From a virus (lineage: Duplodnaviria; Caudoviricetes): a stretch of 48,396 bases of DNA. The translations under genes were made by a program, and so were the position numbers. The stretch covers positions 1 through 48,396 of the IMG/VR virus record IMGVR_UViG_3300037515_000186; one strand, written 5' to 3'. Below, piece after piece: positions 128 to 45,823 of this stretch. Every line of letters begins with the position of its first letter. The first letter of the stretch is position 1. The notes under the pieces are model-generated. The model did not search any database, was not told where the DNA came from, and was given only the letters and a program-made list of their open reading frames with translations.

Positions 128-491
128 CGGCGTCGTCACCCGCTCCGCGGGAGGGGCAAAGATATTCCACTCCGTTGACCTGGACGAGTCGCACGAGACG
201 GTCAGCACCGGCCCCGTGACGGTCTACGGGATGTACTTCTGGAACGCGGGCACGGCCCCCCTGTGGGTCGGGATGTACAACGGCACCGCGACGGGAACGG
301 CTGCCCCACCCGTGAACTTCCCCATCCCCGCGAATGCCGACTCGGACGTGGCGGGGGTGGTCATCCCCACGCCTGCTCAGGGCATCGGCTTCACGGTGGC
401 GCTCATCGTCCGGGTGCTCACCGCGGTCGGCGCGGGCACGGCTGGCCCCGGAGCGAACCAGGCTGGGGCCATCATCACGTACAAGGACTAA
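1..491 (+). CDS. C-terminal part of the junction-spanning fibre-like protein (beta-rich C-domain)
   Basis: Same frame as ORF 78..491; the repeat LPAGTATIG continues. Confidence 0.85.
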   Translation, partial: VGIIILGAGATQIGKLAAGTANIGDVDVASALPAGTATIGNVGVVTRSAGGAKIFHSVDLDESHETVSTGPVTVYGMYFWNAGTAPLWVGMYNGTATGTAAPPVNFPIPANADSDVAGVVIPTPAQGIGFTVALIVRVLTAVGAGTAGPGANQAGAIITYKD

Positions 492-500
492 GGAGGCGGC

Positions 501-629
501 ATGTTGGGTCTGCTTGCACCAGGCGTCGGAATGGGCGGCACCGAGGAGGCAACCGCACCGGGGGCCAAGAGCCGCCGCCTGCTCATCGGCGTCGGCATCC
601 TCCTCTCCCTGCTGAGGTGGCCGAAATGA
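501..629 (+). CDS. 42-aa small protein MLGLLAPGVG...SRRLLIGVGILLSLLRWPK
   Basis: AGGAGG RBS before ATG 501; stop overlaps the next ATG (ATGA). Confidence 0.7.
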   Translation: MLGLLAPGVGMGGTEEATAPGAKSRRLLIGVGILLSLLRWPK

Positions 630-1495
630 CGCCCGACGAGGTGCTGTACCTCTGCCGCAGGACGGACGAGGCCATTGCCACCCGCTACGACCAGGGGCCG
701 GATGGCAGGATGCAGACGCCCGTTCATCTCAGCATCGGCCACGAGGGCGCTGCCGTGGGGGTCTGCATGGGCCTGCCGGTGGGCTCCCACGTCTTCGCCG
801 GTCACCGCAACCACGCCGTCTACCTGGCAATGGGCGGCGACCTCGATGCGATGATCGCGGAGCTGTACGGCAAGGCCACGGGCTGCACGGAGGGGCGCGG
901 TGGCTCGATGCACCTCGTGGACGAGTCCGTGGGCTTCATGGGAGGCTTCCCCATCGTGGGGGACGCCATCAGCCTTGCCACCGGCTCCGCGCTGGCTGCC
1001 AAGCTGGAGAACTCTCTTAGAGTGACGTGCGTGTTCTTCGGTGACGGGGCTGTGGAGTCGGGGCAGTTCTGGGAGTCGCTGAACTTTGCTGCTACGCACC
1101 GGCTCAGGTTACTGTATGTGTGCGAGAACAACCGGCTGGCTACGGACACGTGGCTGGAGGCCAGGCAGCCCATCATGCCCATCCACGAGCGGGTCAAGGG
1201 CTTCGTGCCTGCCTTCACGGCGGAGGTGAGCGAGGTTTTCGACGTGTGCGAAAACGTGCAGTCCGCGTTGAAGTCCCTCCCCGCCTTCATCGAGGTCAGC
1301 ACCCACCGCTGGCGGGAACACGTCGGCCCAAACTGGAACTGGAACACCGGCCTGGAGGGTTACCACCAACTCCTCGAGGCCCAGCGGCGCGACAAGGTGA
1401 AAGACCTGTCGTTCCCTGAGATTGACCGGCGCATCGAGGAAGCATTCGAGAAGGCTCTCGCCGCGCCTTGGCCGGAGGTGGTCAATGCTCTATAG
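626..1495 (+). CDS. TPP-dependent dehydrogenase E1 alpha-like subunit
   Basis: HLSIGHEG, GRGGSMH, TPP motif GDG...ENN, RWREHVG. Confidence 0.92.
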   Translation: MTPDEVLYLCRRTDEAIATRYDQGPDGRMQTPVHLSIGHEGAAVGVCMGLPVGSHVFAGHRNHAVYLAMGGDLDAMIAELYGKATGCTEGRGGSMHLVDESVGFMGGFPIVGDAISLATGSALAAKLENSLRVTCVFFGDGAVESGQFWESLNFAATHRLRLLYVCENNRLATDTWLEARQPIMPIHERVKGFVPAFTAEVSEVFDVCENVQSALKSLPAFIEVSTHRWREHVGPNWNWNTGLEGYHQLLEAQRRDKVKDLSFPEIDRRIEEAFEKALAAPWPEVVNAL

Positions 1496-2384
1496 CCAGG
1501 CCATCAGCCAGTCAATGGTCGAAGCGATGGAGCGCGACCCGAAGGTCGTGTTGCTCGGCCAGAACGTCACGACCACTCATGGGGTATTCGACACCACCAC
1601 CGAGGCGTACCGCCGCTTCCCTGAGCGGTGCATCGAAGCGCCTATCTCAGAGGCGATGCTGACGGGTGCTTGCGTCGGGCTGGCGATGGAGGGCTGGAAG
1701 CCCATCCTCGTCCACACGCGGGCGGACTTCTCGCTCTTCAGCTTCGAGCACCTTATCAACACCGCCGCCAAGCTGCCGTTCCTCCGTGGGAAGCCGCTGC
1801 CGTTCGTCATGCGGTGCGTCGTGGGCCGTGGCTGGGGCCAGGGGCCGGTACACAGCCAGTCGTTCCACAATCTGCTGGCCCAGATACCGGGCGTCGAGGT
1901 GCTGATTCCCGCCAGCGGTGCAAGTTACGAGCGGCATATGGGCCGCGCGCTTGAGGCGGGGCATCCAGTGGTCATCATTGAGCCGCGCCGCCTCTATGAG
2001 CGGCACGATGTGGCCACCCAAGACCTAGAGGGCCGCGCTGGCGTGACTATCGTCACCATCGGTGACACCATCATCGAAGCCGTGGAAGCCAAGGAACGCC
2101 TCAAGGCGATTGGATACGACCCTTACATCGTTCCCTACGAGGACATGGGCCTTTCGGTTGACCTTGGCCGCATGGCGGCTGTCATGGTGGACATGGCCCC
2201 GCGCCGTCCTTGGCGAGGCATCGTTGCCCCGCCGTTCAAGCCGCTGGGGGTGTCCCGCGCCTACGAACGCGCGTGGTATCCCACGGCGGACGACATCGTG
2301 GAAGAGGTCTGCCGAATCTTGGGGCGTAAGGCCCCACCGAGAGAGGAGCGGTATGAGCGCGTCGTTGCCGGAAGTCCTTTCTAG
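1485..2384 (+). CDS. TPP-dependent E1 beta / transketolase pyrimidine-binding subunit
   Basis: MERDPKVVLLGQ, PISEAMLTGACVGLA, GWGQGPVHSQ; coupled to the alpha subunit. Confidence 0.92.
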   Translation: MLYSQAISQSMVEAMERDPKVVLLGQNVTTTHGVFDTTTEAYRRFPERCIEAPISEAMLTGACVGLAMEGWKPILVHTRADFSLFSFEHLINTAAKLPFLRGKPLPFVMRCVVGRGWGQGPVHSQSFHNLLAQIPGVEVLIPASGASYERHMGRALEAGHPVVIIEPRRLYERHDVATQDLEGRAGVTIVTIGDTIIEAVEAKERLKAIGYDPYIVPYEDMGLSVDLGRMAAVMVDMAPRRPWRGIVAPPFKPLGVSRAYERAWYPTADDIVEEVCRILGRKAPPREERYERVVAGSPF

Positions 2385-2592
2385 GCTGCCTGAAGATTTC
2401 GAGTTCGTGAGTCTGCGCGGTGACAGGCTCACCCTGCGGACGAAGGCGCCGATGCTCACGGTCGAGCGCGGCCACACACTCTTGGAACTGGAGAAGCGCC
2501 TGCACCGCGAGGTCGGGCCGATCGACGTGTTCCTGGAGCCGAAGGGCGACATCAATCAGGTCAGGGTGAAGATGCGAGGAGTGAAGGTGTGA
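2353..2592 (+). CDS. 79-aa hypothetical protein within the sugar module
   Basis: GAGGAG RBS; MSASLPEVL...LEPKGDINQVRVKMRG; coupled to neighbours. Confidence 0.7.
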   Translation: MSASLPEVLSRLPEDFEFVSLRGDRLTLRTKAPMLTVERGHTLLELEKRLHREVGPIDVFLEPKGDINQVRVKMRGVKV

Positions 2593-2861
2593 TGGGAAGG
2601 TTCGACTGTGTGGAGTGTGGTCGTGATACCGAGGGAACACTTGAGCGATGCGTTCTCCCCTACCGTTGCGCGGAGTGCCGTGACAAGATCATCGCTCGTG
2701 TCGAGCAGGTCTTCGGTCTCAGGAGCCATACCTACACCGAGTTCTCCTATGAGCTTCAGTGGGAAGATCTGAAACGTCTGCTCGATGCGATGCAATACAA
2801 CATTGCGCTTCGTGGGTATTTCTTACCTGATGAGGCGCGGTACGAGGTAAGTCATGGTTGA
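2589..2861 (+). CDS. Small protein with CxxC...CxxC zinc-ribbon
   Basis: CVEC...CAEC; overlaps both neighbours. Confidence 0.65.
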   Translation: MMGRFDCVECGRDTEGTLERCVLPYRCAECRDKIIARVEQVFGLRSHTYTEFSYELQWEDLKRLLDAMQYNIALRGYFLPDEARYEVSHG

Positions 2862-3981
2862 CCAGATTGAGCGGCCTTCAACCGCACTCGCCATGATGGA
2901 CGGGCACAAGCTGCCGCACCACATGGACAGGGTGGACGCATGGCGGCGCGGCGAGAGAATCGCGCCCGTCACCATCGACATGGCCCTCACCCGCAAGTGC
3001 GATGCGGCCTGCGGCTTCTGCTACGCGATGCTCCAGGAGAACGAGCGGCACGAGCTGACCTGGCCCGTGCTGTCGGACTTCCTGGACGACGCCAAGGCCA
3101 TCGGCGTGAAGGCCGTCTCCCTGCTGTCGGACGGGGAGTCCATGCTGTCGCGCCACTGGGTGCCCTTCGTGCAGAAGGCCCGCGCCATCGGCCTGGACAT
3201 CGCGGCGGGCTCCAACTGCCACGCCTACACGCCTGAGCGCCAGGAGGACTCGCTGGGCTGCCTCTCCTACATCCGCATCAACTTCCCCGCAGGCGAGAAG
3301 AAACGGTACTGCGAGATCATGGGCGTGCCGCCCAAGTTCTACGACACGACCGTGCGGAACATCGAAAACATGGTCGCGCTGAAGAAGCGCAAGGGGCTGG
3401 ACACGGTGTTGACGCTCCAGATGGTCTGCCTGCCACAGGACGCCGACCAGATCATCCCCTTCGTCAAGCTGGGCAAGGAGTTGGGCGTGGACGCCTGCAC
3501 CATCAAGCACGTGGCCGACGACGAGGACGGCAGCCTCGGTATGGACTACCAGGCGGTCAAGGGGATGATTCCCGCGCTGAAGGAAGCGCAGAAGCTCGCC
3601 ACGCCTGACTATCAGGTCATCGTCATGTGGAACAAGATTCTCGAAGGCATGACGCGGCCCTACCACCGCTGCCGCGGCCCGCAGTTCATGCTCCAGATCA
3701 GCGGCTCCGGACTCGTAACGACCTGCGGCGACAAGATGAACGACCGCTACGCCAAGTTCCACATCGGGAACATCGCGGAGCAGCGGTTCATGGACATCTT
3801 CCACTCTGAGCGGTACTGGGAGGTGATGGGCTACCTCGCCTCCGAGGAGTTCGACGCGCAGAAGTCCTGCGGGCCGCTGTGCAGACAGAATGCCATCAAC
3901 GCTGCCCTCGATGCGGAAGTAACCCAGGGTAAAATGATTGAGCCTGCTACCACTCCAACTATTCATCGGAACTTCATTTGA
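2854..3981 (+). CDS. Radical SAM enzyme with SPASM/twitch domain
   Basis: CDAACGFC (CxxxCxxC); C-terminal C..GPQ...GLVTTC...IGNI...C..LC pattern. Confidence 0.93.
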   Translation: MVDQIERPSTALAMMDGHKLPHHMDRVDAWRRGERIAPVTIDMALTRKCDAACGFCYAMLQENERHELTWPVLSDFLDDAKAIGVKAVSLLSDGESMLSRHWVPFVQKARAIGLDIAAGSNCHAYTPERQEDSLGCLSYIRINFPAGEKKRYCEIMGVPPKFYDTTVRNIENMVALKKRKGLDTVLTLQMVCLPQDADQIIPFVKLGKELGVDACTIKHVADDEDGSLGMDYQAVKGMIPALKEAQKLATPDYQVIVMWNKILEGMTRPYHRCRGPQFMLQISGSGLVTTCGDKMNDRYAKFHIGNIAEQRFMDIFHSERYWEVMGYLASEEFDAQKSCGPLCRQNAINAALDAEVTQGKMIEPATTPTIHRNFI

Positions 3982-4667
3982 TGAAGACTCGTGAAGAGCG
4001 CCTAGAGTACATGCGCCAGTGGTATCGAGACCACAGGGAGGAACAACGCGCCAAGCAGAAGGCTTGGAACACAGCGCATCAGGAAGAGGTAGCAGAATAC
4101 GTTCGTGAGTACCGGAGGCGCAATCCTGCTGCGGCCCGTGAGCGCAACCGCAAGTGGCGAGAACAGCACCCTGACTACTTCAAGCGCTATCGTCAGGAAC
4201 ACAAGGAACAAAAGCGCGAATCGGACAACGCCTCGCGAGAGATACGCAGGGCACGAAGACACCAAGTCCCAACCGAGTACATCAGCATCAAGATGCTTCG
4301 GGAAAGGGATAGGAACATCTGCCAGATATGCAAGCGCGTTGTTGGCTCGCGAGGGGCGAGTATTGACCATATTGTTCCCATCTCGCACGGCGGTTCCCAC
4401 ACTTGGGAAAATGTTCAACTGGCTCACACGAAGTGCAACAGCAGCCGTGGAGCAGGCCGGTTGCCAGCCCAGATGCGCCTAGGAGGGATGGCCTCAACAC
4501 GAACTCCTGGCCCTCCTACGAAGCGGAAACTCACCGAGGCCATTGTGCGCCGCATCCGGTACGGAGGTGAACGAGCCGCTGCCCTAGCTGCCGAATTGGG
4601 GCTAGGCCAACGTACTGTCTATGACATTCGCCAAAGCAAGACTTGGGCATGGTTAGGAGTGGAGTGA
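3978..4667 (+). CDS. HNH endonuclease (probable homing endonuclease) with C-terminal HTH
   Basis: RDRNICQIC...SIDHIVPISHGGSHTWENVQLAHTKCNS; C-terminal KLTEAIVRRIR...TVYDIRQSKTWAW. Confidence 0.88.
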   Translation: MMKTREERLEYMRQWYRDHREEQRAKQKAWNTAHQEEVAEYVREYRRRNPAAARERNRKWREQHPDYFKRYRQEHKEQKRESDNASREIRRARRHQVPTEYISIKMLRERDRNICQICKRVVGSRGASIDHIVPISHGGSHTWENVQLAHTKCNSSRGAGRLPAQMRLGGMASTRTPGPPTKRKLTEAIVRRIRYGGERAAALAAELGLGQRTVYDIRQSKTWAWLGVE

Positions 4668-5176
4668 TGACTACTAAGGTCGAGATGGACAGAGACCTTG
4701 CCAACGCGGCGTTGGAAGCGTTCGCGGACGTGGCTTTTGCCATGGACTTGGACTGGTGCATCTTCGCGGGAACGTGCCTCGGCCTCTACCGGGACGGGAA
4801 GTTCCTGCCTGACGACAACGACCTCGACGTTGCGGTCAAGGCCACGGAGGAGAGGCTGAACGTTCTCTGGTATCACCTGCACTCGGCGGGCTTCAAGCTT
4901 GGCCGCTTCTGCGAGAACAAGGACGGCACCAAGAACCGGCACGTCTACTACCATCCCGACATCCCATGGCCCGACGCGGTCGGCATCCTCGTGGACGTGT
5001 TCTACACCTTCACGGAGGACGAGGCGAACCTGATGGTCAACTACGGCCAGATCACCTACCGGGAGCGGGACTACCTCACGCCCTATCCGGTGCAGGCGTA
5101 CCTCCAACTGGCCTACGATGAGTGGTGGGACAAATCGCTCAGGACGGCGGCGGCGGGGAAGGAAGGCGTCAAATGA
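4667..5176 (+). CDS. LicD-family nucleotidyltransferase-fold phosphotransferase
   Basis: FAGTCLGLYRDGKFLPDDNDLDV matches the LicD GTxLGxxR...DxDxD motif. Confidence 0.88.
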   Translation: MTTKVEMDRDLANAALEAFADVAFAMDLDWCIFAGTCLGLYRDGKFLPDDNDLDVAVKATEERLNVLWYHLHSAGFKLGRFCENKDGTKNRHVYYHPDIPWPDAVGILVDVFYTFTEDEANLMVNYGQITYRERDYLTPYPVQAYLQLAYDEWWDKSLRTAAAGKEGVK

Positions 5177-5550: not shown

Positions 5551-6810
5551 ATGGCCGTCACGCAGAGCACTTCCCGCAAAGACCTTCGCCAGGCCATAGG
5601 ACGGCTCACCGGCAAGATGGAGCGCCGCACGGCCTCGTCCAACGGCTCGACGACCACCATCGTTGACTCATCCCTGCCGGGAGGGGACAACGAGCACAAC
5701 GGAAAGCGGGCCGTGCTGCACGACGGGAACAACGCGGGCGCCATCAAGCGCGTCACGGACTACGTGGCCTCGACCACGACGCTGACCATCGCTCCCACGG
5801 CGGCGGCGGCGGTCAACGCCAACCACACCTTTGAGCTGTGGGAGCGCAACACGGACCCGAACGATATCAACGACCTCATCAACGACGCCATCAAGGACAT
5901 CACCGGCCTGTTCTTCGACCCCGTTGAGGACGCGGCGCTGCACGCGGACGGCCGTCAAACGCGGTTCGACATCCCCTCCGGCCTGTCGATGGTGCACCGG
6001 GTCATGTACCGCACGTCCATGCGGTCGAAGGTCATCCACACCTGTGGGCGGACGTGGGACGAGAAGACGGACGCCGACTTCACCGTGGCGGTCGATACCA
6101 AGGACTACAAGCGTTCCAAGGGGTCGCTGAAGATAACCGTCGCTGCCGGGGCCTCCGCCGCCGACTCCATCTCCGACTCCATCGACTCCCTCGACCTGTC
6201 GGGCATGACGCACGTCGAGTTCTGGATCAAGTGCTCGGTGGCCGTCACGTCTGGCAACCTGAAACTCCTGCTGGACGATACCGCCTCCGTGGCCTCGCCG
6301 GTGGAGACCCTCAGCATCCCGACGCTCGTGGCGGATACATGGACGCGGGTGAGGATAGCGCTGGCGAACCCTGAATCGGACACGGCCATCATCAGCGTGG
6401 GCCTGGACTACGCCGGAGACATCGGCGCCTGCACCATCTGGCTCGACGACATCGTGGCGATGAACAACGACTCAGAGGTGTGGGCACCTCTGGCCTCGCA
6501 CCTGTGGAGCATCGACAAGGAAGCGGGAGACCTGATTCTGGCTTCAGGCGGCAGGATGACGGCGGGGTACGCGCGGTTGAAGCTCCTGGGCGGGGACAAG
6601 CCCGCGCTTCTGACGGCGGACACGGGCACGACCGAGGTGCCCGAGGACTTCATCGTGAACTGGGCGGTGGGACGGATGCTGCTGTCGGAGGGCGGCGGGC
6701 CTACGACCGACCAGGACGCGCACCACTCCCGGAGCCAGCCGTGGTTGGTGCTGGCGCAGCGGGCGAAGGACTCGATTCACCTACCGCCTGGGGCGCGGAT
6801 GGTCAGCTAG
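5551..6810 (+). CDS. Putative head-tail adaptor with an inserted carbohydrate-binding-like beta-sandwich
   Basis: Lies before the nozzle-like gene; DINDLINDAI helix; internal LDLSGMTHVEFWIK...DTWTRVRIAL...IWLDDI segment. Confidence 0.6.
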   Translation: MAVTQSTSRKDLRQAIGRLTGKMERRTASSNGSTTTIVDSSLPGGDNEHNGKRAVLHDGNNAGAIKRVTDYVASTTTLTIAPTAAAAVNANHTFELWERNTDPNDINDLINDAIKDITGLFFDPVEDAALHADGRQTRFDIPSGLSMVHRVMYRTSMRSKVIHTCGRTWDEKTDADFTVAVDTKDYKRSKGSLKITVAAGASAADSISDSIDSLDLSGMTHVEFWIKCSVAVTSGNLKLLLDDTASVASPVETLSIPTLVADTWTRVRIALANPESDTAIISVGLDYAGDIGACTIWLDDIVAMNNDSEVWAPLASHLWSIDKEAGDLILASGGRMTAGYARLKLLGGDKPALLTADTGTTEVPEDFIVNWAVGRMLLSEGGGPTTDQDAHHSRSQPWLVLAQRAKDSIHLPPGARMVS

Positions 6811-6962
6811 GCGGAAATGAGAACTCCATTAGTTCCCACAGCTGAGGTGATGTCCCAGGGCACTGTCAGGGGGTAACGGAACCAGCGGCCATCCGTCAGG
6901 AGTTCCACATGGAGACCATCGTCATCGAACTTGAACACGGGGGATATGAGTTGATTAGACAT
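6807..6962 (-). CDS. 51-aa antisense ORF encoding a single beta-propeller-blade-like peptide
   Basis: MSNQLISPVFKFDDDGLHVELLTDGRWFRYPLTVPWDITSAVGTNGVLISA*; fills the intergenic gap and has its own promoter. Confidence 0.75.
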   Translation of the reverse strand: MSNQLISPVFKFDDDGLHVELLTDGRWFRYPLTVPWDITSAVGTNGVLISA

Positions 6963-6968
6963 GGGCGG

Positions 6969-6996
6969 AGGATAGCAAAGCAGGCCGGGTAGTCAA
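6969..6996 (-). promoter_or_regulatory. Sigma70-type promoter for the leaderless ORF 6962-6807
   Basis: TTGACT-16nt-TATCCT with a TGn extended -10; ATG lies 6 nt after the -10. Confidence 0.7.
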
Positions 6997-7100
6997 CCCC
7001 TGCGAATAGTGTCGTAAGATACGCGCCACTTCGGAGGTGGCGCATGAAAGTAGTCTTTTTGATTGCCCTCTGCCTGCTGGCGGTGGGCGCGGGAGAGCCG

Positions 7101-10082
7101 ATGGCAGGTCGCGTTGTCAATCAGAACGAGATTTACCTTGGCGGCACGTTCTTCCCCCTGAGCCGTCCGGTGCAGCGCACGCTCGTGCCCAACACCGCCG
7201 CGAAGGTGGTCATCGGGGACACGACCAAGGACAGCTCTGTCGATTCGTCCGCCCTGGCGCTCTCCGACTTCCGTGGGGGCATCGGCCTCAACAAGATGAA
7301 GGGTGCTGGCGAGGTGGACAGGGTGTGGTACTCGACTGCCAACCTGTCGCACCAGGGACACATGGTGCTGCCGCCGTTGGCTACCCAGATCGCCGACCCC
7401 GGCGCTGATGTTGGCCCTCTCCAGTTGATAGAGTTCGACAATGCCATCTTTGGTGTATGGGTTGATACAACGAGTGGGGCCGATACAGTGGTGCATGAGT
7501 ACAATAATAATGCCGATGATTGGATAGACCCCGCTTCAGCAACGCTGACTCCTGCTGGGATTTGGCAATCTGGGTTGATGAGTCTCCGGCTTGAAGGGAC
7601 GATGTATCTTGTTGGACGCAGCATATCCATTCCTAATTCCACAAGGTACACGACAGACGGCAGCACTTGGGGAAGACTTCCTGTCGCAGCATGGAGGACT
7701 GTGCTGTGGGACGAAAAGCTATTCTTCATTGACCTCGATGGGCAACTCGCCTACGTGACCAGTCTGGAACCAGTGCTGACAGAATCGGGCACCGTCTCGG
7801 CGGTGGAAACAAATGGGTCTGCCGCGCTCGACGACACCGCCGCGCAATTCACGAGCACGATCAGGGACGGCAGCCATCGCGTCCGTGTTGTAGATGCGAC
7901 AGAGCGCGCGGTAAATGGTTTTATTGGAACGGCTGACCCAGACGGCGATGACACACGGGTGCAAATCTTCAACTCCGCAGCGCGTACGACCCAAAACTGG
8001 GTCGAAGGCGGCTCAACAACGTTTGATCCTACTGACGGGCCGCTTACTTATGAGGTGTACAGAGTTGTTGAGGATGCGCTGCTGCCAGTGCAGCCCTATG
8101 ACGGAGGAGACCATATCCTCTCTCCCGTCTCACAGATGTTCACCTACCAGGACGCAGGTGGTGAAAGCATCATCTATGTGGCATCTCCTTATGGGTTATT
8201 CGCCCACGACTTTGATAACACGAAGTTCGTGGAAACAGAGTTGTCGCTTCCGACGCACCGTGACAATGGGAAGGGTGCCGTAACGTGGCGCGGCTCGTCC
8301 TACATCTCGTCAGGACTTGCCGTCTACCAATATCAGGTTGGCAGGCAGGCGGTGGTCTCACTGGTTGGGCCTGATAGAGACGACGGACTGATTGGCATCA
8401 AGAGGGGCATCATCACCCGGTTCGTACCGGGCCATAACGCACTATTTGCCTTCGTTTCTCCTGTTGACTTCCTGGCACCATCTGGTTCAGGCCGTGACCC
8501 TTGGAACGCGGCTGCCGCTGTTGCTCTCCAGGACAAAGACATCTCAGCACAGGGCGCGACCCCCAAAGGCGTCTTCTTCAAACCGGACGGGTTGGAGATG
8601 TACGTCGCTGAGGATGCTGACAACGCCGTAGACCAGTACACGCTCACCACGGCATGGGATGTGTCCACCGCAGGGTTCACCCGCACCCTTGCCATCGGAA
8701 CAGAGGAGACCAGCCCCGCCGGTATCTTCTTCAAGCCAGACGGCACGAAGATGTACGTCGTCGGCTTCCAAGACGACGAGGTGAACGAATACGACCTGGG
8801 AACGGCGTGGGACATCTCCAGCGCCTCGCACGTACAAGCCCTCGATGTGACGGTGCAAGAGGATGCTCCTCACGATGTGTTCTTCCGTGCTGACGGCAAG
8901 AAGATGTACATCGTGGGCATAGCGGGCGTTGAGGTGAACGAGTACGACCTGGGAACGGCGTGGAATATCTCCACCGCCGTGGCCTTGCAGGCGTTCGACC
9001 TCTCAGGCGAAACAACCGCGCCCACAGGCATCTTCTTCAAGCCGGACGGCACGCGCATGTACATGACCGGCTCCGGCAGCGTGCATCAGTACGACCTCTC
9101 CACGGCATGGGATGTCTCCAGCGCGGTGCTGGTGAGTTCAACCAGCGTGACTGGCCAGGAGGCCACGGTAGAAGGCGTGGCGTTCAAGGTGGACGGCACG
9201 AAAATGTACATCGTCGGCTCAGGTGGCGTTGAGGTGAACGAGTACGACCTGCTGCCGAGTCCGCTGATCTTGGCGTGGGATGGTGTTGGCTGGCAGGTAC
9301 TTTGGGATGAAGGTTCGCCAGGCTATACCATCACTAGCGGAATTGTTGCCAATGCGTACAACGAGTACCGGCTGTGGTGGAGCACCTCTAGGTTTTTCAA
9401 TGCCACAGCATCCCAGAGCACCGACCCGCAGGTCTATTTCATTGACCTCCAACGCGACATCGTGAACCCCAATCAGGTTGCGGACTACAAGTACGCGGTC
9501 GAGGCCGAGACCATCACGCCGTGGTTCGACGCAGGGCAGAGCGAGCTCAACAAGCTGGCGCTGAAGATCGTCGCTGAGACGATTGTTCCTGACTCTGACG
9601 ACTCCATCACCATCTCCTACGCGCTTGACTACTCGGAGGTATGGACGGCGCTGACGGCCATCACCACGAGCGGCTCCACGACGTTCACGCTGCCCAACGC
9701 GGCGACGCCAGAGGGCGTGGCCTTCCGCGCCATCCGGTTCCGCATCGAGCAGGAGCGCACGAATGACGACCCTGACGTGGACAAGTTCCATTCACCCGAC
9801 CTGAACAGCCTCACGCTGGTCTACGAGAAGCGCTACCCGCCCAAGTTCGGCTTCACGGTCAGTCTTGACCTGTCGAAACCTTACAAGGACAAGACGCCAG
9901 CGCAACTGCAAAGCACGCTCATCACGCTCATCGAGGACGACAACACCAACGAGTTCACGTACCGCAACGACGACTCCGAGGAGCGCAACTACTGGGTGCG
10001 CATCCGTGGCTTCTCTGGGCTCGACACGACGGGCGAGGACGAGCGGGGCCAGGTGCAATTGCAGCTTCAGGCGCCGGGATGA
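7101..10082 (+). CDS. Tail nozzle-like beta-propeller protein with inserted domains (alternative start 7044)
   Basis: Large beta-rich ORF after the adaptor; five internal FxxDGxxMY...YxL repeats; GGGAGAG RBS before 7101. Confidence 0.7.
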   Translation: MAGRVVNQNEIYLGGTFFPLSRPVQRTLVPNTAAKVVIGDTTKDSSVDSSALALSDFRGGIGLNKMKGAGEVDRVWYSTANLSHQGHMVLPPLATQIADPGADVGPLQLIEFDNAIFGVWVDTTSGADTVVHEYNNNADDWIDPASATLTPAGIWQSGLMSLRLEGTMYLVGRSISIPNSTRYTTDGSTWGRLPVAAWRTVLWDEKLFFIDLDGQLAYVTSLEPVLTESGTVSAVETNGSAALDDTAAQFTSTIRDGSHRVRVVDATERAVNGFIGTADPDGDDTRVQIFNSAARTTQNWVEGGSTTFDPTDGPLTYEVYRVVEDALLPVQPYDGGDHILSPVSQMFTYQDAGGESIIYVASPYGLFAHDFDNTKFVETELSLPTHRDNGKGAVTWRGSSYISSGLAVYQYQVGRQAVVSLVGPDRDDGLIGIKRGIITRFVPGHNALFAFVSPVDFLAPSGSGRDPWNAAAAVALQDKDISAQGATPKGVFFKPDGLEMYVAEDADNAVDQYTLTTAWDVSTAGFTRTLAIGTEETSPAGIFFKPDGTKMYVVGFQDDEVNEYDLGTAWDISSASHVQALDVTVQEDAPHDVFFRADGKKMYIVGIAGVEVNEYDLGTAWNISTAVALQAFDLSGETTAPTGIFFKPDGTRMYMTGSGSVHQYDLSTAWDVSSAVLVSSTSVTGQEATVEGVAFKVDGTKMYIVGSGGVEVNEYDLLPSPLILAWDGVGWQVLWDEGSPGYTITSGIVANAYNEYRLWWSTSRFFNATASQSTDPQVYFIDLQRDIVNPNQVADYKYAVEAETITPWFDAGQSELNKLALKIVAETIVPDSDDSITISYALDYSEVWTALTAITTSGSTTFTLPNAATPEGVAFRAIRFRIEQERTNDDPDVDKFHSPDLNSLTLVYEKRYPPKFGFTVSLDLSKPYKDKTPAQLQSTLITLIEDDNTNEFTYRNDDSEERNYWVRIRGFSGLDTTGEDERGQVQLQLQAPG
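8500..9252 (+). repeat. Five ~50-aa beta-propeller blade repeats
   Basis: FKPDGLEMY, FKPDGTKMY, FRADGKKMY, FKPDGTRMY, FKVDGTKMY; the first four are followed by Y(T/D)LxTAW(D/N)(V/I)S; DNA gaggtgaacga(a/g)tacgacctg occurs three times. Confidence 0.9.
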
Positions 10083-11031: not shown

Positions 11032-11223
11032 CTAGGCCGCGTGCGCCTCGTGTGATCGTGGGGTAAACACTTCAGCACCACATTGGACACAGGTGAGCTT
11101 GAGATCGTGGATGTCGCGGCGGTAAAGGTCGCCCTCGCAGCGCGGGCAGCACTTGAACAGCAGGCGCGGCATCCTGGCCACTCTGCGCCGCTGTCGTTCT
11201 CGTGCCTTCGTCGTCAGCCTCAT
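11032..11223 (-). CDS. Zinc-ribbon small protein
   Basis: CPRCEGDL...CVQCG. Confidence 0.65.
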   Translation of the reverse strand: MRLTTKARERQRRRVARMPRLLFKCCPRCEGDLYRRDIHDLKLTCVQCGAEVFTPRSHEAHAA

Positions 11224-22692: not shown

Positions 22693-22968
22693 CTATGCAG
22701 TGCCTTTGGCGGCGTACTCTGCCGCGAGTTCTTGGATGAGGGCCACGCGGTCGGCGGCGTGCTGCCGCTGCTCAACCACCCAGACGGCCACCTGGACGCG
22801 GTTCTCCATGCCAAGCTTGGTCATCACGTTCCGCACGTGGGCGCGGATGGTGTTCTCGCTGATATCCATCAGCGCCGCGATCTCCTTGTTCGGCTTGCCC
22901 AGGGCCACCAACTGCGCTATCTGCTGCTCCCGCTCGGTCAGGTCACGTACTGCCATCTTGTCCTCCAT
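22693..22968 (-). CDS. LuxR/GerE-type HTH transcriptional regulator
   Basis: LTEREQQIAQLVALGKPNKEIAALMDISENTIRAHVRNVMTKLGMENR. Confidence 0.93.
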   Translation of the reverse strand: MEDKMAVRDLTEREQQIAQLVALGKPNKEIAALMDISENTIRAHVRNVMTKLGMENRVQVAVWVVEQRQHAADRVALIQELAAEYAAKGTA

Positions 22969-24062: not shown

Positions 24063-24851
24063 CTATGCGGCCCAGGTCTGGCCGTTGTACTCATCCAAAC
24101 TGGCTTCCACATCATACGGACGGTAGAGACCGAGCATCTTCGAGGCGTGGCCCCACATGATGCCCGCCAGCGTATGCGTGTCGCCCTTCCATCGGCGGGC
24201 GAACGTATGCCGCAGCGTGTGGGCACTCGCGCGCTTGCCGGTGATGCCCGCCGCTCGCATGGCTAGGATGACAGTGTGCGAGGCGATCCTCGCGTCCTTC
24301 CACGGCCAGGGCAGCATCCACCTCAGGACGGTTATCAGCTCAGGGTCGCAGGGAATCTCCCTCGTTCCCGTCTTGCCGGTGACCACAATCGTCCGCTCTC
24401 TCAAGCACTCGGTGCTGGCCTCAAGGGACATGGCCTCGCCCAGCCTGAGCCCCGTCCTCAGGAGCAACCGCAGCAGCAGCCGGACGTAGCCCTCGTGGGG
24501 GTGGGCGAAGAGCTGGTGAATCTCCGCATCGGTGAAGGCGCGGGGCACCTGGCGCCGGGTCCGTGGACGCTCGGCGTACAGCATTGGGTTGCGCGCGGGG
24601 TCGAGCTTGCGCCGTCGCACCAGCCACCGGTACATCGTGCCGATGGTGCGCCAGTGAGTATCGTACTGGCCGGGGTTCGTGAACTGAGCACAATACCCTT
24701 CGACGGGCTCGGGCTTGGTAGGCAGATCGCGGAACGCCCCGGCAAAGCGGGTGAGCCGCAGTTGGTAGCCCTCGGTCGTACGTGGGGAAAGGATGGGCGA
24801 TTTCGCCGCCAGGAACATGGACACGGCCTCGTTGGTACGCATGGGTGACAC
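24063..24851 (-). CDS. int: Tyrosine recombinase/integrase (short, Xer-like)
   Basis: Catalytic residues: TGLR, GK, HTLRH, GH, Y in LGLY. Confidence 0.92.
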   Translation of the reverse strand: MSPMRTNEAVSMFLAAKSPILSPRTTEGYQLRLTRFAGAFRDLPTKPEPVEGYCAQFTNPGQYDTHWRTIGTMYRWLVRRRKLDPARNPMLYAERPRTRRQVPRAFTDAEIHQLFAHPHEGYVRLLLRLLLRTGLRLGEAMSLEASTECLRERTIVVTGKTGTREIPCDPELITVLRWMLPWPWKDARIASHTVILAMRAAGITGKRASAHTLRHTFARRWKGDTHTLAGIMWGHASKMLGLYRPYDVEASLDEYNGQTWAA

Positions 24852-28075: not shown

Positions 28076-28105
28076 TCCCTCATCTCCTAGGTGTTCTACG
28101 GCTTG
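26425..28105 (-). repeat. Five copies of a leader motif ending ACCTAGGAG before start codons
   Basis: Plus-strand ctcctaggt at 26425, 27045, 27496, 27864, 28084; three copies extend to CAAGCCG-N-AACACCTAGGAG on the minus strand. Confidence 0.88.
27512..27573 (-). ncRNA. Type II hammerhead ribozyme
   Basis: GCC GAAA CGCCC ugcg GGGCG UC^ UACCGCGA ccggcua UCGCGGUA CUGAUGA GGC a AGCCG: full core, stems I-III and a loop I CGGCU / 3' AGCCG pseudoknot. Confidence 0.93.
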
Positions 28106-28118
28106 ACTGCCGCTGCTG

Positions 28119-28155
28119 GTCAATCTACACTAAGTCAACCTACGTGTCAACCTAC
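28119..28155 (-). promoter_or_regulatory. Strong sigma70 promoter overlapped by three direct repeats
   Basis: TTGACA (28150-28145), 17 nt, TAGATT (28127-28122); GTCAA(C/T)CTAC at 28119, 28134, 28146. Confidence 0.85.
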
Positions 28156-28696: not shown

Positions 28697-29185
28697 ATGA
28701 CCATGGACGACACACCCAGTGCTTCTCTTCTGCACGCTGTGAATCTTCTGCCCTCTACGAGGTTCTCTCCCCCCACCTCTATCCGCCATCCTCAAAAGCG
28801 TGCGTTCCTGGCCGCGTATGCAGAGGCGGGGACGATCAACGCTAGCGCTCGTGCGGTGGGTATCGAGCGTCACACGCACAACGATTGGCTGGCGAGCGAT
28901 GCGGACTACCGTGAAGGCTTCACGCAGGCCAAGGCGGCGTTCTGTGACCACCTGGAGGAGATGGCCTTTGCCCGTGTGCGTGCTCAGAGTCCCAAGGACT
29001 CGCCCCTGCTCCTGATCTGTCTCCTGAACGCGCATCTTCCAGAGAAGTACAGGCCGAACCAGCAACCCACCGACGATAGGGCCATCGAGCTCCTGGCCAA
29101 GCTACGAGAGATGTCACGCGTACAAGGTAAGGGGCAGGCTCCAGCGCTTGGTGAGGCAGGCGGCGCTACGTCAGAGGACGGCTAG
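28697..29185 (+). CDS. terS: Terminase small subunit
   Basis: KRAFLAAYAEAGTINASARAVGI HTH; LEEMAFAR; LLICLLNAHLPEKYR. Confidence 0.75.
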   Translation: MTMDDTPSASLLHAVNLLPSTRFSPPTSIRHPQKRAFLAAYAEAGTINASARAVGIERHTHNDWLASDADYREGFTQAKAAFCDHLEEMAFARVRAQSPKDSPLLLICLLNAHLPEKYRPNQQPTDDRAIELLAKLREMSRVQGKGQAPALGEAGGATSEDG

Positions 29186-29362: not shown

Positions 29363-29692
29363 ATGGCAGGCTCATTTTGTGACGAGTGCAACGGGTGGCA
29401 TTTCGCGGACGAGCCACATGTGTTAGGAGGAAGTCGTGTTCAACAGAGTCAGGCGTCGTTTGGAGATGTGGGTGGCAGGGTGGATGCGAGGGGAAGCGCT
29501 GAGTCCGGCTCAGGAGCGGAAGGTGCGGTACGGGGTGGAGGAGTTGAACGAGAGCGAATTCGAGAGGTTCATCCGGCAGGGGATACAGGCGGTGGCGGTG
29601 AGAAGCGAGGAAGAGGGCGACCCAGGAAGCCTGACGCGCTGAGCCGTGCAGAGATCCAGCGGCGCTTCCGGGAGAGGAAGAAGGCGGGATGA
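29363..29692 (+). CDS. Small putative DNA-binding protein (CxxC..H N-terminus, RGRPRK...AEIQRRFRERK C-terminus)
   Basis: Leaderless start 7 nt after TATAAT; basic C-terminal helix. Confidence 0.6.
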   Translation: MAGSFCDECNGWHFADEPHVLGGSRVQQSQASFGDVGGRVDARGSAESGSGAEGAVRGGGVERERIREVHPAGDTGGGGEKRGRGRPRKPDALSRAEIQRRFRERKKAG

Positions 29693-42040: not shown

Positions 42041-43669
42041 ATGGTTACTCCGGCTCTCGCACCGGACAAACTCCAGGGTGTCCCGGTGGGCATGGCACCT
42101 GTCGCGCCCACCGGGCTGCTGCCCACCGTGCTCGTTGCCATCATGGGGCCGTACCCGATGGCCTACGGGAACGACGGGCGGACGACGCTGGACGATACCC
42201 TGGCCATGTGCGCGACGGACGCCTGTGCCGCCGTACCCGTCTTCATCCCCGACCTCATCACGGACGAGGAGAAGGCGTCCACGGTGGACGGGGCGCGCCT
42301 GCGTGGGCACACCTCCATGCGGAACACGGCGGTCAACCTGGCCATCGCGTGCCGCTACGACTACCTGCTCATCGCGGACAACGACGCCAAGTTCCCTCCC
42401 CACATGCTTGGCCGTCTGCTCCAGCACGACTGCGACCTGATTGTCCCGCGCCTCACCTACCCGGCCTTCGACCCCGTGGAGTGGCTGTGCTACGGCCCCA
42501 GCCCCGCAGATCACGCCCTATCCGGTGGGCTGATGCAACTGACCTGGGCAGCGCATAGCGCCTTCATGTTCAAGGTGGAGGCGCTGAAGCGCATCCAGCA
42601 CCCCGTGTTCCAGGGCTTCCACCAAGAGGGGAAGGACTACAACTACTGGAACGAGCAGGGCATTGTGGGCTACATGGACTTGGACACGCCCATCGAGGTG
42701 CTGGCGCTGGCGCGGGGCCACCGGGCCTTCTACCACATCCCGTTCCAGTACCACCAACGCAATGGAGAGCCCTGCCCCGGCCCCGTCTACGAGTACAAGC
42801 GGACGCGGCACGTCACCATCTATCGCTGCAAGGAGGAAGGATGTGAGTACGAGATGACCTCCATCGCTCCCAAGGAACAGAACCTCCAGGAGTTGAACAA
42901 CCCCAGTCTCCTCATCAAGAAGGAGATGGAGCGCGATCACTGGGCGGAGCGGGCCAAGGACTACGGCAATCTCACCTGGCCGCGCCACAAGGGTTACCTG
43001 CGGGCCATCCTGGAGGCGGGCAGCCTGCGCGAGGATGACTTCGTGCTGGACGCGGGCACGGGGACGGGTGCCATCGCCCACGCTGCTGCCCTGAAGGCCG
43101 AGCGGGTTATCGGGCTCGACATCTCACCTGAGATGCTGCACATCGCGGGAGAGGGCAAGCGGTACAACGAGGAGTTTGCCGAAGGGGATATCCGGGCGAT
43201 TCCCTACCCCCGCTGGTTCTTCTCCAAGGTGTTCGCCCGGATGGTGTTGCACGGGCTGGTGGAGGACGACGAGATGGAGACCGCCGTCCGCGAGTGCCAC
43301 CGGGTGCTCCGCACAGACGGGCGGCTCATCGTCTCCGAAGGGGTGCCCACGACCGACGCCATCGCTCCCTGGTACACGGAGGTCTTCAAGAAGAAGGAAG
43401 CCCGCCTCACCATCACTGTGCCCCTGCTGGCTGGCCTGCTTGTGCGGGCGGGGTTCCGTGGCGTGACCGCGCGAACGTACACCATCCGCCAGAGCAGCGT
43501 GCGCAACTGGCTGGAGAACGGCGCGATAGGCCAGGAGAGCGTCACGAACATCATGGACTGCTACCGGAGAATGCCGGAGGCGGTGCGGGAAGGCTACCGG
43601 GCCACCTTCGTGGAGGACGACGTGCTGATCGACACCAAGTACGCCATCGTGAGTGGGGTGAAGGTGTGA
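42041..43669 (+). CDS. GT-A-like glycosyltransferase fused to a class I SAM methyltransferase
   Basis: MRNTAV...YDYLLIADND (DxD); C-terminal VLDAGTGTG, GLDISPEML, GDIRAIPY. Confidence 0.8.
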   Translation: MVTPALAPDKLQGVPVGMAPVAPTGLLPTVLVAIMGPYPMAYGNDGRTTLDDTLAMCATDACAAVPVFIPDLITDEEKASTVDGARLRGHTSMRNTAVNLAIACRYDYLLIADNDAKFPPHMLGRLLQHDCDLIVPRLTYPAFDPVEWLCYGPSPADHALSGGLMQLTWAAHSAFMFKVEALKRIQHPVFQGFHQEGKDYNYWNEQGIVGYMDLDTPIEVLALARGHRAFYHIPFQYHQRNGEPCPGPVYEYKRTRHVTIYRCKEEGCEYEMTSIAPKEQNLQELNNPSLLIKKEMERDHWAERAKDYGNLTWPRHKGYLRAILEAGSLREDDFVLDAGTGTGAIAHAAALKAERVIGLDISPEMLHIAGEGKRYNEEFAEGDIRAIPYPRWFFSKVFARMVLHGLVEDDEMETAVRECHRVLRTDGRLIVSEGVPTTDAIAPWYTEVFKKKEARLTITVPLLAGLLVRAGFRGVTARTYTIRQSSVRNWLENGAIGQESVTNIMDCYRRMPEAVREGYRATFVEDDVLIDTKYAIVSGVKV

Positions 43670-43671
43670 CG

Positions 43672-45024
43672 ATGGTTGACCATCCTTGGAAGATAGCTGA
43701 TATCGACAACTTCCTCCCGCTGCGGGAGGGCCAGCGGGTCGTGCTGTGTCACGGGGTCTTCGACGTGCTGCACCCCGGCCACATAGCCCACCTGAGGGAA
43801 GCGGCCCAGCTTGGTGACGTGCTGGTGGTGAGCGTCACCGCCGACGAGCACGTGAACAAGGGTCCGGGGCGTCCCGTCTTTTCTACACGTCAACGCGCTG
43901 AGCAGGTTGCCGCGCTTGCCTGCGTGGACTACGTGGTGGTGAGCCATTCCGCGACAGCGAGGGAAGCCCTGGAGGCCATCCGCCCTGCCTACTTCGTGAA
44001 GGGGGGCGATTACGAGGGAACAGGGATTCTCCCAGAGGAAGGCGTGACGGCACGGGCCGTGGGCGCGCAACTGCGCTTCACCTCCGCGCCGGTCGATTCG
44101 TCGTCCCGTGTGGGCAACCGTGCGTTCGCCACTTACCCGGAGGGGACGGAACGCTGGCTGGACGCCTACCGGCAGCGCCGGAGCGCGGGAGATATCCTCG
44201 CCGCGCTCGACCGTATCGCTGCGATGAAGGTGCTGGTGGTGGGCGAGTACATCATCGACCGCTACACCTTCGTCGATACGCTGGCCAAGTCCCCGCGTGA
44301 GCACCACCTGTCCGTGAAGAAGACGGAGACCGCCGTGAACCATGCGGGGGGTGCCGTGGCGGTACGGCGGCACCTTGCTGGCTTCGTGGAGCAGTGCCAC
44401 GTCATCCACCAGCAGGAGGGCATCATCAAGGAGCGGTTCGTGGAGCGGCACGAGCGGCGCAAACTGTTCTCCGTCCAACGCTTCCCCGACACGCTGACCA
44501 TTGGTGCCGCCGACGCCGAGCGGCTGTGGGCGTGCGGTGACTACGACCTCGTGATCGTCACCGACTATGGGCATGGCCTGTTCGACGACAGGCTGCGGAA
44601 GACGCTGGAGCAGGCGCGGTTCCTGGCGGTGAACTGCCAGACGAACTCGGCCAACTACGGGCGGAACCTCGTGACCCGCTGGCCCGAGGCGGACTTCGTG
44701 TGCCTTGACGGGCCGGAGTACGACCTGGCCGTCACGCATGGCTGGCAGCCCACCAACGTGCCACGGGTGCTGCTGACGCGAGGCAAGGACGGGTGCAACT
44801 TTGGTGAGGACACACCGGCCTTCGCTGTCAACGTGGTTGACCGGGTGGGCGCGGGCGATGCGCTGTTCGCCCTGGCCGCGCCATTGGTGGCGGCGGGGGT
44901 GGAGCCTGACATCGTGGCCTTCATCGGCTCCTGCGCCGCGGCGATGCAATGCGAGACGCTGGGGAACGAGCGGCCCGTCAACCCAGAGGTGCTACGGAAG
45001 TTCATGGCGAGGCTGCTGGCATGA
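43672..45024 (+). CDS. HldE/RfaE-like bifunctional nucleotidyltransferase + PfkB kinase (reversed domain order)
   Basis: CHGVFDVLHPGH (HxGH), NKGPGRP, VKGGDY; C-terminal DYGHG and DRVGAGD. Confidence 0.9.
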   Translation: MVDHPWKIADIDNFLPLREGQRVVLCHGVFDVLHPGHIAHLREAAQLGDVLVVSVTADEHVNKGPGRPVFSTRQRAEQVAALACVDYVVVSHSATAREALEAIRPAYFVKGGDYEGTGILPEEGVTARAVGAQLRFTSAPVDSSSRVGNRAFATYPEGTERWLDAYRQRRSAGDILAALDRIAAMKVLVVGEYIIDRYTFVDTLAKSPREHHLSVKKTETAVNHAGGAVAVRRHLAGFVEQCHVIHQQEGIIKERFVERHERRKLFSVQRFPDTLTIGAADAERLWACGDYDLVIVTDYGHGLFDDRLRKTLEQARFLAVNCQTNSANYGRNLVTRWPEADFVCLDGPEYDLAVTHGWQPTNVPRVLLTRGKDGCNFGEDTPAFAVNVVDRVGAGDALFALAAPLVAAGVEPDIVAFIGSCAAAMQCETLGNERPVNPEVLRKFMARLLA

Positions 45025-45299
45025 ACATCACGTTTGAGTTCAACGCATTGAGGATTGGCGAGACCCCTTTGTTTCCGGCGATTGGGCTCCTGGTGGGTGC
45101 TTCAGGTGAGATTGGCCTGATTACGCTGCTCCCGGATACTTGGCTTGTCAAGAACACCCTCACCATGAACGATGCCCTGCGTGCATTGACCGATGTTCTT
45201 GTTGATGGTTGGCATCTTGAGACTATCCGAGATGCCTCGCTTCGCGGGAACGAAATCGTGGGTACCTTCGACATCATCAAGCAGGGGGCACCCGCATGA
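45021..45299 (+). CDS. Hypothetical protein
   Basis: ATGA-coupled on both sides. Confidence 0.6.
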   Translation: MNITFEFNALRIGETPLFPAIGLLVGASGEIGLITLLPDTWLVKNTLTMNDALRALTDVLVDGWHLETIRDASLRGNEIVGTFDIIKQGAPA

Positions 45300-45823
45300 T
45301 GACGACTGCCGACACCCTCTCCGCCTACAAGGGACGCGCACAGGCTGCGTTGGGGGCCGTGAAGGTCTCTGAGGTGGCTGCGCTCGTCCATTACCTGGAG
45401 GCTGTCAGGGAGGACGGCGCGGCGGTGTACGTGGTCGGCAATGGTGGCTCGCAGGCCACGGCGGCGCACCTTGTGCTGCATCTGAGGAACACGGGAGTAC
45501 GGGCATTCGACCTGCTGGGGGACAACGCCTGGCTGACCGCCATAAGTAATGATTGCTCCTACCGTGAGGCACCCGCATGGTTGGCCGGAACGCTGCGGCG
45601 GGCAGGTGACGCGCTGTTCGTCATCAGCGGCAGTGGAAAGTCCGAGAACGTCCTCTGTGCCCTAGAAGGTTTTGATGGCGTTAGGCTAGGTCTCTTGGGC
45701 TTCGGCGGAGGTGAGGCGCGGATGCTCTGCAATGCCTCCGTGGTGCTGCCGGAGGAGGAGTACGGGCCGGTGGAGGACGCGCACCTGGCCGTCGTCCACA
45801 TGCTGGCGGAGGGGTTGAAGTGA
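45296..45823 (+). CDS. GmhA-like SIS phosphosugar isomerase
   Basis: VGNGGSQATAAH, TAISND, ISGSGKSENV, GFGGG, VEDAH. Confidence 0.9.
   Translation: MMTTADTLSAYKGRAQAALGAVKVSEVAALVHYLEAVREDGAAVYVVGNGGSQATAAHLVLHLRNTGVRAFDLLGDNAWLTAISNDCSYREAPAWLAGTLRRAGDALFVISGSGKSENVLCALEGFDGVRLGLLGFGGGEARMLCNASVVLPEEEYGPVEDAHLAVVHMLAEGLK

Follow-up and report, generated by a model that had tools for sequence, protein, structure and literature searches.

The temperate Pseudomonas phage JBD26 carries in its late operon the minus-strand gene tab, a moron of 83 amino acids (aa) that has a promoter to itself and is accompanied by anti-Tab (PMC10884400). In that paper, Tab has the tape measure protein as its target and blocks tail assembly of kin whose target nearly equals the phage's own, and it is described as resembling no known domain. 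The taiEcA gene of phage phi80, one of the Tai/Ati systems and located in a noncontiguous operon, has the opposite orientation to the late operon that it interrupts; driven late transcription lowered its expression, and the main account of the system has it acting on tail components (PMC11364771). Here we describe an open reading frame (ORF) from the virus record IMGVR_UViG_3300037515_000186 (Caudoviricetes), which was analysed over its whole length of 48,396 bp (the window, a complete virus record with terminal repeats present). The ORF is located at 6807-6962 on the minus strand, starts with ATG, encodes 51 aa and sits between a head-tail adaptor-like gene and a putative nozzle gene. A first-pass annotation of the same sequence had pointed out that this frame was missing from the ORF track, and the frame was found to be real. 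Its product corresponds to a single blade, complete with strands 1-4 and in the intact-blade frame, from a family of five-bladed beta-propeller repeats, and it is referred to below as the blade ORF. Like tab, it lies on the minus strand of a late operon with a promoter-like site, the promoter being a consensus match, and like taiEcA it is placed on the opposite strand within a late operon. It differs from tab in that it is homologous to a repeat in the adjacent tail protein and that its activity is a prediction, and from taiEcA in that TaiEcA has 26 kDa as tagged and its description in the main account mentions no structural mimic (PMC11364771). Homology to Tab or Tai is unlikely because the blade ORF is homologous to the propeller repeat.

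Two further kinds of propeller sequence come close to the blade ORF. Single tachylectin-2 motifs were functional in the intact-blade frame only, and the natural single-motif propeller proteins treated in the main text of the same study are bacterial and uncharacterised, have a median length of 81 aa or are embedded in other domains, and were read as ancestral seeds (Smock and colleagues, PMC4735018). The blade ORF shares with these proteins the single motif of about 50 residues, the intact-blade frame and a genome that also encodes a full propeller, but unlike the single-motif proteins it comes from a phage, consists of the bare blade with a change on one face, and runs antisense within a tail operon. 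Also on record are non-coding propeller fragments that decayed next to propeller genes, in the cases described in PMC9218822 as same-strand remains of a disrupted gene. As in those cases, blade-coding DNA is found here beside a repetitive propeller gene and outside the annotated genes. In contrast to the fragments described there, the blade ORF is on the opposite strand, undisrupted and promoter-bearing, and it resembles its neighbour no more closely than it does the family at large.

The first-pass annotation had regarded the peptide as one blade of the tail protein's own propeller repeat. Profile alignment of the peptide to the repeats was significant: with a family profile of 2,331 repeats the blade ORF scored 24-25 bits (E = 9e-7), and none of 20,000 shuffled sequences scored as high, with some bias in its favour since the source proteins of the profile had been chosen with the blade ORF as query. 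A profile made from the five nozzle repeats alone gave 11 bits (E = 0.012); the blade ORF was the top non-self match among 1,049 six-frame segments, and its score was reached by one of 20,000 shuffles. When 1.84 billion proteins were searched with phmmer, 976 matches at E ≤ 0.001 were obtained. The best 150 of these were proteins of 257 to 5,191 aa with several matched stretches each; the repeat was present in 148 of them, and one inspected exception was an unrelated protein. The blade ORF carries the signature residues of the family (F, DG, Y, L and W-D), keeping F12, D15, G16, Y30, L32, W36, D37 and A41, and its single period opens just ahead of strand 1 and runs through strand 4, which is the intact-blade frame. 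It comprises one unit only, while five tandem units with velcro closure are found in the nozzle insert. No Pfam family fits the blade ORF, and no match to it was obtained in Pfam, PHROG or PADLOC (2023 library).

Kinship with the nozzle repeats is thus real, but "own repeat" holds at the level of the family only. Core identity between the blade ORF and the nozzle blades was 29-32%, about the family median of 31%, whereas the nozzle blades share 52-74% among themselves. No DNA similarity to the nozzle repeats was found, the best local DNA match being 12 nt. Derivation as a copy or recent duplicate of the nozzle repeats was rejected on both grounds, and an invertible cassette or the template of a diversity-generating retroelement was rejected for lack of DNA-level similarity. 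No rearrangement joints were seen in the contigs of two sequencing runs, of which the second has no cover over most of the blade ORF. A chance shadow frame with a fortuitous resemblance might be considered, as the ORF is short and the genome is rich in GC and in shadow frames, and the Atlas recognition score was under its mark. Against this stand the E value, the shuffles and the family matches given above, as well as the first Atlas matches (0.92-0.94), which all belonged to one propeller clan, and this explanation has practically no weight.

The neighbouring tail gene contains a complete propeller of the same family. The putative nozzle/tail gene (7101-10082, +) owes its label to conserved gene order, with no confirming sequence match in Pfam, PHROG or the PDB. 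Its insert at 8487-9260 (+) encodes a closed five-bladed beta-propeller and is absent from all 66 of the relatives' nozzles whose two flanks were visible. The five blades reported in the first-pass annotation were recovered both by the repeat profile and in an AlphaFold model calculated from a 28-row alignment, which had 20 strands in five blades, the first, N-terminal velcro strand closing the last blade (pLDDT 96.4, pTM 0.93). This run was used instead of a single-sequence run, which gave a pLDDT of 51. Viral models in BFVD matched the nozzle propeller with TM values of 0.85-0.96, among them A0A6J5NPF0 and A0A3G2YRG7 (Lentibacter phage ICBM2) with 0.93-0.95. Solved structures were distant, with a best Foldseek TM of about 0.6; VIA matched YjiK (3qqz) with a Z score of 22.8 and a root mean square deviation of 2.6 over 222 residues at 12% identity. 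The best solved matches are propellers which we take to be five-bladed. The nozzle gene appears to be a mosaic, as suggested by a third-position GC content of 0.55-0.62 at 7344-8500 compared with about 0.9 in the adaptor gene, and it has a second insert of about 100 aa (residues 242-341; 7767-8066) that is missing from most relatives.

Among the repeats of the family, 373 tandem clusters were distinguished; the number of units was divisible by five in 222 of them and exactly five in 145. Velcro closure requires a cluster to stop short of the W-D motif, and 111 of the 145 did so. Another 24 clusters of one unit were located within long proteins. The repeat of these five-bladed, YVTN/NHL-like propellers of phage virion proteins is the same as that of the blade ORF, with a period of about 51 aa and the same signature residues, but there it forms tandem arrays, mostly in fives, whereas the blade ORF has a single blade. 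Other carriers are Roseobacter phage CRP-9, Synechococcus phage S-SKS1 and wedge protein 53 of Synechococcus S-SCSM2R, and an estimated 1,900 or so stored viral stretches hold one motif. The family is common in the virion proteins of phages and in large proteins of bacteria, with up to 40 matched repeats per chain, and has neither a fitting Pfam family nor a close solved structure.

These results bear on two functions that the first-pass annotation had offered for a free blade, namely completing the nozzle propeller in trans and masking the receptor. Both would draw on the shared repeat family and the adjacent gene. Completion in trans was rejected because the nozzle propeller is already complete, with its 20 strands, in a family built in fives. 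Receptor masking was not supported, as neither a signal peptide nor a membrane segment was found in the 51 residues. Taken together, the two are very improbable.

Compared with natural blades, the blade ORF is changed on one side. E20 was found in none of 2,327 and W27 in none of 2,326 natural blades, neither occurred in 375 further blades, and V9, K11, H18 and R29 are rare in the family. By strand alternation the altered residues share one face, and K11, E20 and R29 form a cross-strand row. When scored against 1,880 complete natural blades, face A of the blade ORF was at the 11th percentile and the loops at the 30th, while face B was below all of them, as was the total score. Packing on the next blade would call for an aromatic residue at column 20 and V, I or L at column 29, where the blade ORF has E20 and W27. 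Covariation in 1,746 consecutive blade pairs predicted that face B of blade n packs on face A and the loops of blade n+1. With the residue sets defined by covariation, none of 1,881 blades had a donor side scoring as low as that of the blade ORF, and 424 matched or undercut its acceptor side. From the packing direction and the face scores it therefore appears that the side kept is the one that docks on the previous blade and the side changed is the one that receives the next blade.

Neutral decay was simulated with substitutions but without indels, from ancestors drawn from the sampled family. In 61% of 10,151 runs a stop codon was hit before the total score of the blade ORF was reached. Both face scores were reproduced in none of 4,000 stop-free runs, the face difference in 0.2% and equally intact loops in 0.4%. 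The hallmarks of a decayed fragment, that is stops, frameshifts and structure-blind changes, were not seen, and the frame is open over the full period. Weighed together with the reservations that follow, these results speak fairly for a folded blade under selection and less strongly for a dead face B.

Several observations weigh against a one-sided blade. Random partitions of the same columns were as good in 68 of 6,435 cases and, for the covariation-defined sets, in 307 of 43,758 (p about 0.01). The asymmetry comes largely from the two residues E20 and W27, which had already been seen when the test was devised. Columns 20 and 29 are neighbours, and an aromatic residue at column 29, the column of W27, was present in 5 of 99 blades without an aromatic residue at column 20 compared with about 20 of 2,220 others; W27 may accordingly repair E20, in which case face B might still pack. 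A coupling score was weak and showed no preference for the phage's own blades (held-out AUC, the area under the curve, about 0.63); it was uninformative, and residues unseen in the family cannot be scored by couplings.

If W27 stands in for the aromatic residue lost at position 20, the peptide could form a ring of its own, probably of five copies, that does not mix with nozzle blades and serves as a soluble propeller for some ligand. Consistent with this are the intact-blade frame, the coupling of columns 20 and 29 within a blade, the natural occurrence of the aromatic swap, and V19, which would lie opposite W27 of the previous subunit and is smaller than the usual M or L. In the work on reconstructed motifs covered by the main text of PMC4735018, 47-residue motifs gave five-bladed pentamers. 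On the other hand, column 20 held a charged residue (D, E, K or R) in 0/2,327 natural blades, the acceptor side has little matching change, and the single WD40 blades described in PMC6805158 stayed unfolded monomers in vitro. The homo-propeller proposed in the first-pass annotation is thus disfavoured, as the altered face is the one for the next subunit, even though W27 may compensate for E20, and we regard it as unlikely.

The blade ORF has a promoter-like site of its own, and the layout given in the first-pass annotation was borne out as a consensus match. A -35-like hexamer TTGACT (6991-6996, -; read from 6996 to 6991) is separated by 16 nt from TATCCT (6974-6969), which is preceded by TG and belongs to an extended -10-like element TGC-TATCCT (6969-6977, -). 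Only 6 nt lie between the -10 element and the ATG, and there is no Shine-Dalgarno sequence ahead of the ATG, so that the start is probably leaderless. A promoter match of at least 9/12 located 5-7 nt upstream was found for three of 1,430 genomic ATGs on both strands, the blade ORF among them; one of these three lies within the nozzle gene, precedes a 10-aa ORF and is probably due to chance. The motif GGTTGACW is common to this region and a promoter region at 28.1 kb, with a count at chance level (3 vs 2.6). One contig of the sequencing run spans the region of the blade ORF with zero differences and is not independent support. No Rfam match was obtained within 6500-7400. The ATG of a 167-aa antisense frame (6993-7496, -) over the 5' end of the nozzle gene is preceded by the hexamer TATTAT, and the frame terminates on the -35 hexamer of the blade promoter; it is probably a shadow frame.

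The head-tail adaptor-like gene upstream (5551-6810, +) encodes 419 aa, has a weak match to SU10_adaptor (E = 1.3e-4, under the cut-off) and has 1,479 homologues. For comparison, 88 relative loci with adaptor homologues of 30-53% identity were used; the two closest homologues (68% and 62%) were outside the DNA comparison. The alignment of the relatives puts the conserved nozzle start at ATG 7101, and 6811-7100, between the adaptor stop and this start, is therefore a lineage-specific insertion of 290 bp. The gap between both genes was ≤40 nt in 84 of the 88 loci; two had other small plus-strand genes and two lacked the junction. In the two loci with small genes, L048 and L058, the adaptor stop is followed by a related gene of about 100 aa on the plus strand, and the junction evidently tolerates insertions. 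The GC content of the insertion is 0.53 compared with 0.63 for the genome, and the 6-bp repeat GGCGGA occurs at 6810 and 6964, on both sides of the blade ORF. At the convergent overlap CTAG (6807-6810), the stop codon of the blade ORF is built from the last sense base of the adaptor gene and the adaptor's own stop codon.

An in-frame ATG at 7044, upstream of the conserved nozzle start, adds 19 hydrophobic residues. Its strong Shine-Dalgarno sequence, GGAGGTG, is buried in a 9-bp hairpin (7024-7100, +; z of the region -2.3). The 19 residues are signal-peptide-like and in frame with the nozzle; they may be a captured gene start or a replacement for a lost translational coupling to the adaptor.

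A blade in related phages, which the first-pass annotation had named as a check, was found neither in the 88 relative loci nor in 50 relative records. In those 50 records, most of them fragments and searched with positive controls, there was no propeller of this family either, so that few targets are known in the lineage. The blade ORF and the nozzle propeller are hence both absent from the relatives and adjacent here. A word-indexed search of proteins of 28-90 aa with the blade ORF gave no match. An 11-row blade alignment retrieved 95 short proteins in clusters of 1-3 members; the 45 shortest look like pieces of ordinary arrays, most of them starting at the strand-2 Met, and the best score against the blade ORF was 28.7 bits. 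Among viral contigs five loci matched, four of them multi-blade wedge-type genes and one a chance match. A degenerate pattern for a blade with D or E at column 20 found four viral stretches, none of them a blade. Searches of 50,697 phage records with tblastn and blastn revealed no relative of the blade ORF or of the insertion, and no prophage copy was found.

The insertion could also be a relic, either captured foreign DNA or a once-useful gene whose protein function is now gone. Its singleton status, the total score below that of every complete natural blade, the borrowed stop codon, the low GC content, the flanking GGCGGA repeats and the signal-peptide-like 19 codons that arrived with it agree with this, and decayed blade fragments beside propeller genes are documented, in the part of PMC9218822 concerned by a same-strand search. 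In a variant, a divergent promoter region may lie within the insertion, leading in one direction to the blade gene and in the other to the 19 hydrophobic codons at 7044-7100, which would be the start of a gene for a secreted protein. The damage was non-random in the decay simulation, however, with no stop or frameshift over the full period, and the promoter-like site and the start are intact. The 5' stump of a multi-blade gene would also need face B for its next blade and would normally start with the velcro strand. A relic is rather unlikely, though the least so of the alternatives to a capping blade.

Judged from these sequence features, the independently expressed free-blade gene of the first-pass annotation holds in so far as the ORF looks lineage-specific, independently promoted, leaderless and antisense; of the functions suggested there, poisoning is the one favoured by the evidence. 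We therefore propose, tentatively and at clearly less than even confidence, that the product is a capping blade which would block tail assembly of superinfecting kin and be shut off by head-on transcription; each functional step is predicted. In the lysogen or at an early stage of infection, host RNA polymerase would make the leaderless mRNA, since a host-type promoter on the strand opposite to the late genes indicates expression outside late assembly. The conserved side (F10, F12, G16, V19, L21, Y30, W36 and I38) would bind the exposed blade face of a nascent propeller. The charged side (K11-E20-R29, H18 and W27) could not take the next blade, and the ring would stay open and the carrier tail protein misfold. 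The whole tail protein would likely be spoiled because the propeller sits in the middle of it. The victims would be superinfecting kin with this tail module, and the phage would protect itself by late transcription running head-on through the blade gene, as reported for the phi80 tai locus. This reading is suggested by the layout of the Tab and Tai genes, which are likewise antisense with their own promoter in a late operon; the action would resemble that of these tail-assembly blockers but proceed via mimicry of a structural repeat.

In its fullest form the proposal is more doubtful. It then says that a temperate phage has turned one repeat of a virion propeller into a dominant-negative chain terminator, an antisense, leaderless, half-sticky blade that would dock on nascent five-bladed propellers, block ring closure in the tail proteins of rivals and be silenced by head-on late transcription, perhaps with an overlapping antidote of 27 residues. 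The temperate lifestyle is suggested by a tyrosine recombinase gene (24063-24851, -) with a PF00589 match over the cut-off and visible R, K, HxxR and Y residues. This integrase-family gene was present in none of 27 relative records, three of which are near complete.

A capping blade also faces difficulties beyond those of the face statistics. Lysogeny is deduced from this one recombinase gene, and no repressor was identified in the genome. The blade ORF occurs in one genome only, with no close or single-blade homologue in the protein, viral-contig and phage-record searches, and it borrows its stop codon from the adaptor gene. A recently dead gene would look identical. Moreover, a single blade may not fold, as noted above for WD40 blades.

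Two further functions were weighed against the capping blade. A folded single blade with a mini-core of F12, V19, L32 and W36 might bind an unrelated protein of the host or of a phage, such as a defence sensor, through a new surface made of W27 and the charged row. The strongest couplings within a blade were found among face A and loop positions, so that conservation need not mean docking on a propeller, and an exposed Trp is a typical binding residue. However, the contacts to the previous blade, F10, L21, Y30 and I38, also remain hydrophobic, and adjacency to a gene with the same repeat would then be mere coincidence or history; such a binder seems quite improbable. Marginally less probable still is a role in the folding or timing of the phage's own nozzle, in which the blade would shield the open edge of the propeller until closure or delay tail assembly. 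Co-occurrence and adjacency with the nozzle insert would fit, and a one-sided surface suits a transient cap as well as a poison. The strand opposite to the late genes and the host-type promoter do not fit, the coupling score gave no preference for own blades, and many propeller phages have no single-blade gene nearby: 30 of 31 loci were multi-blade only, one being cut by the locus end, and the CRP-9 locus is a further example.

The candidate for the antidote of the capping blade is a 27-aa ORF on the plus strand (6909-6992), which is codon-on-codon antisense to the blade ORF and has AGGAG 6 nt before its ATG; it may be due to chance. A Shine-Dalgarno site like this was present at 51 of 1,430 ATGs, mostly apparent gene starts, and the probability of its having arisen by chance would be a few percent. 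The frame gave no Atlas match. It is located where an antidote or a late-expressed counter-defence gene may be expected. A second small plus-strand ORF of 19 aa (6817-6876) begins 6 nt past the adaptor stop; both ORFs may ferry ribosomes over the insertion or encode an antidote.

Elsewhere in the window, the region 28100-28155 has divergent promoter-like sites, two direct copies of GTCAACCTAC and an inverted repeat TTGAC-N11-GTCAA, and is possibly a genetic switch. Other candidate leaderless genes, with TANNNT 5-7 nt before ATG, were located at 11032-11223 (-), 29363-29692 (+) and 28697-29185 (+); a 63-aa product of such a candidate has two CxxC motifs. A stand-alone LuxR/GerE regulator (22693-22968, -; E = 9e-21) is encoded in the early region. 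The late region (263-5176 and 42041-45823) encodes halves of E1 dehydrogenase and transketolase, radical SAM/SPASM, LicD, a methyltransferase, a cytidylyltransferase-PfkB protein and a SIS domain. These sugar-modifying and related genes possibly serve glycosylation of the virion or a surface.

Antisense defence genes in tail operons and uncharacterised bacterial single-motif propeller proteins are already known. A bare, one-sided phage blade beside the propeller that it resembles was found neither in the literature searched nor in other sequences, and that literature, mostly without subscription papers and supplements such as Data S1 of PMC4735018 (on natural single-motif proteins, which may bear on novelty), described neither a single-blade inhibitor nor this five-bladed family. 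The blade ORF thus appears odd, well delimited and easy to test, yet it is a single occurrence. Propellers are thought to arise from single blades, but functional natural single blades are barely documented, and the present searches turned up none whose role had been tested. The blade ORF offers a small and cheap test object, as one peptide and one domain of 258 residues decide between a cap, a homo-ring and a relic. A relic would be an ordinary case, and a ring would be a natural single-blade propeller. If the peptide is a cap, it shows that a one-sided copy of the unit of a closed repeat fold can poison that fold, and a mechanism of mimicry would be added to the Tab/Tai class of assembly-blocking defences. 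It would represent both an anti-phage defence that mimics a structural repeat and a natural unit that caps a closed toroidal fold, directed at a family that is widespread in viruses, present in cultured phages and without a close solved structure.

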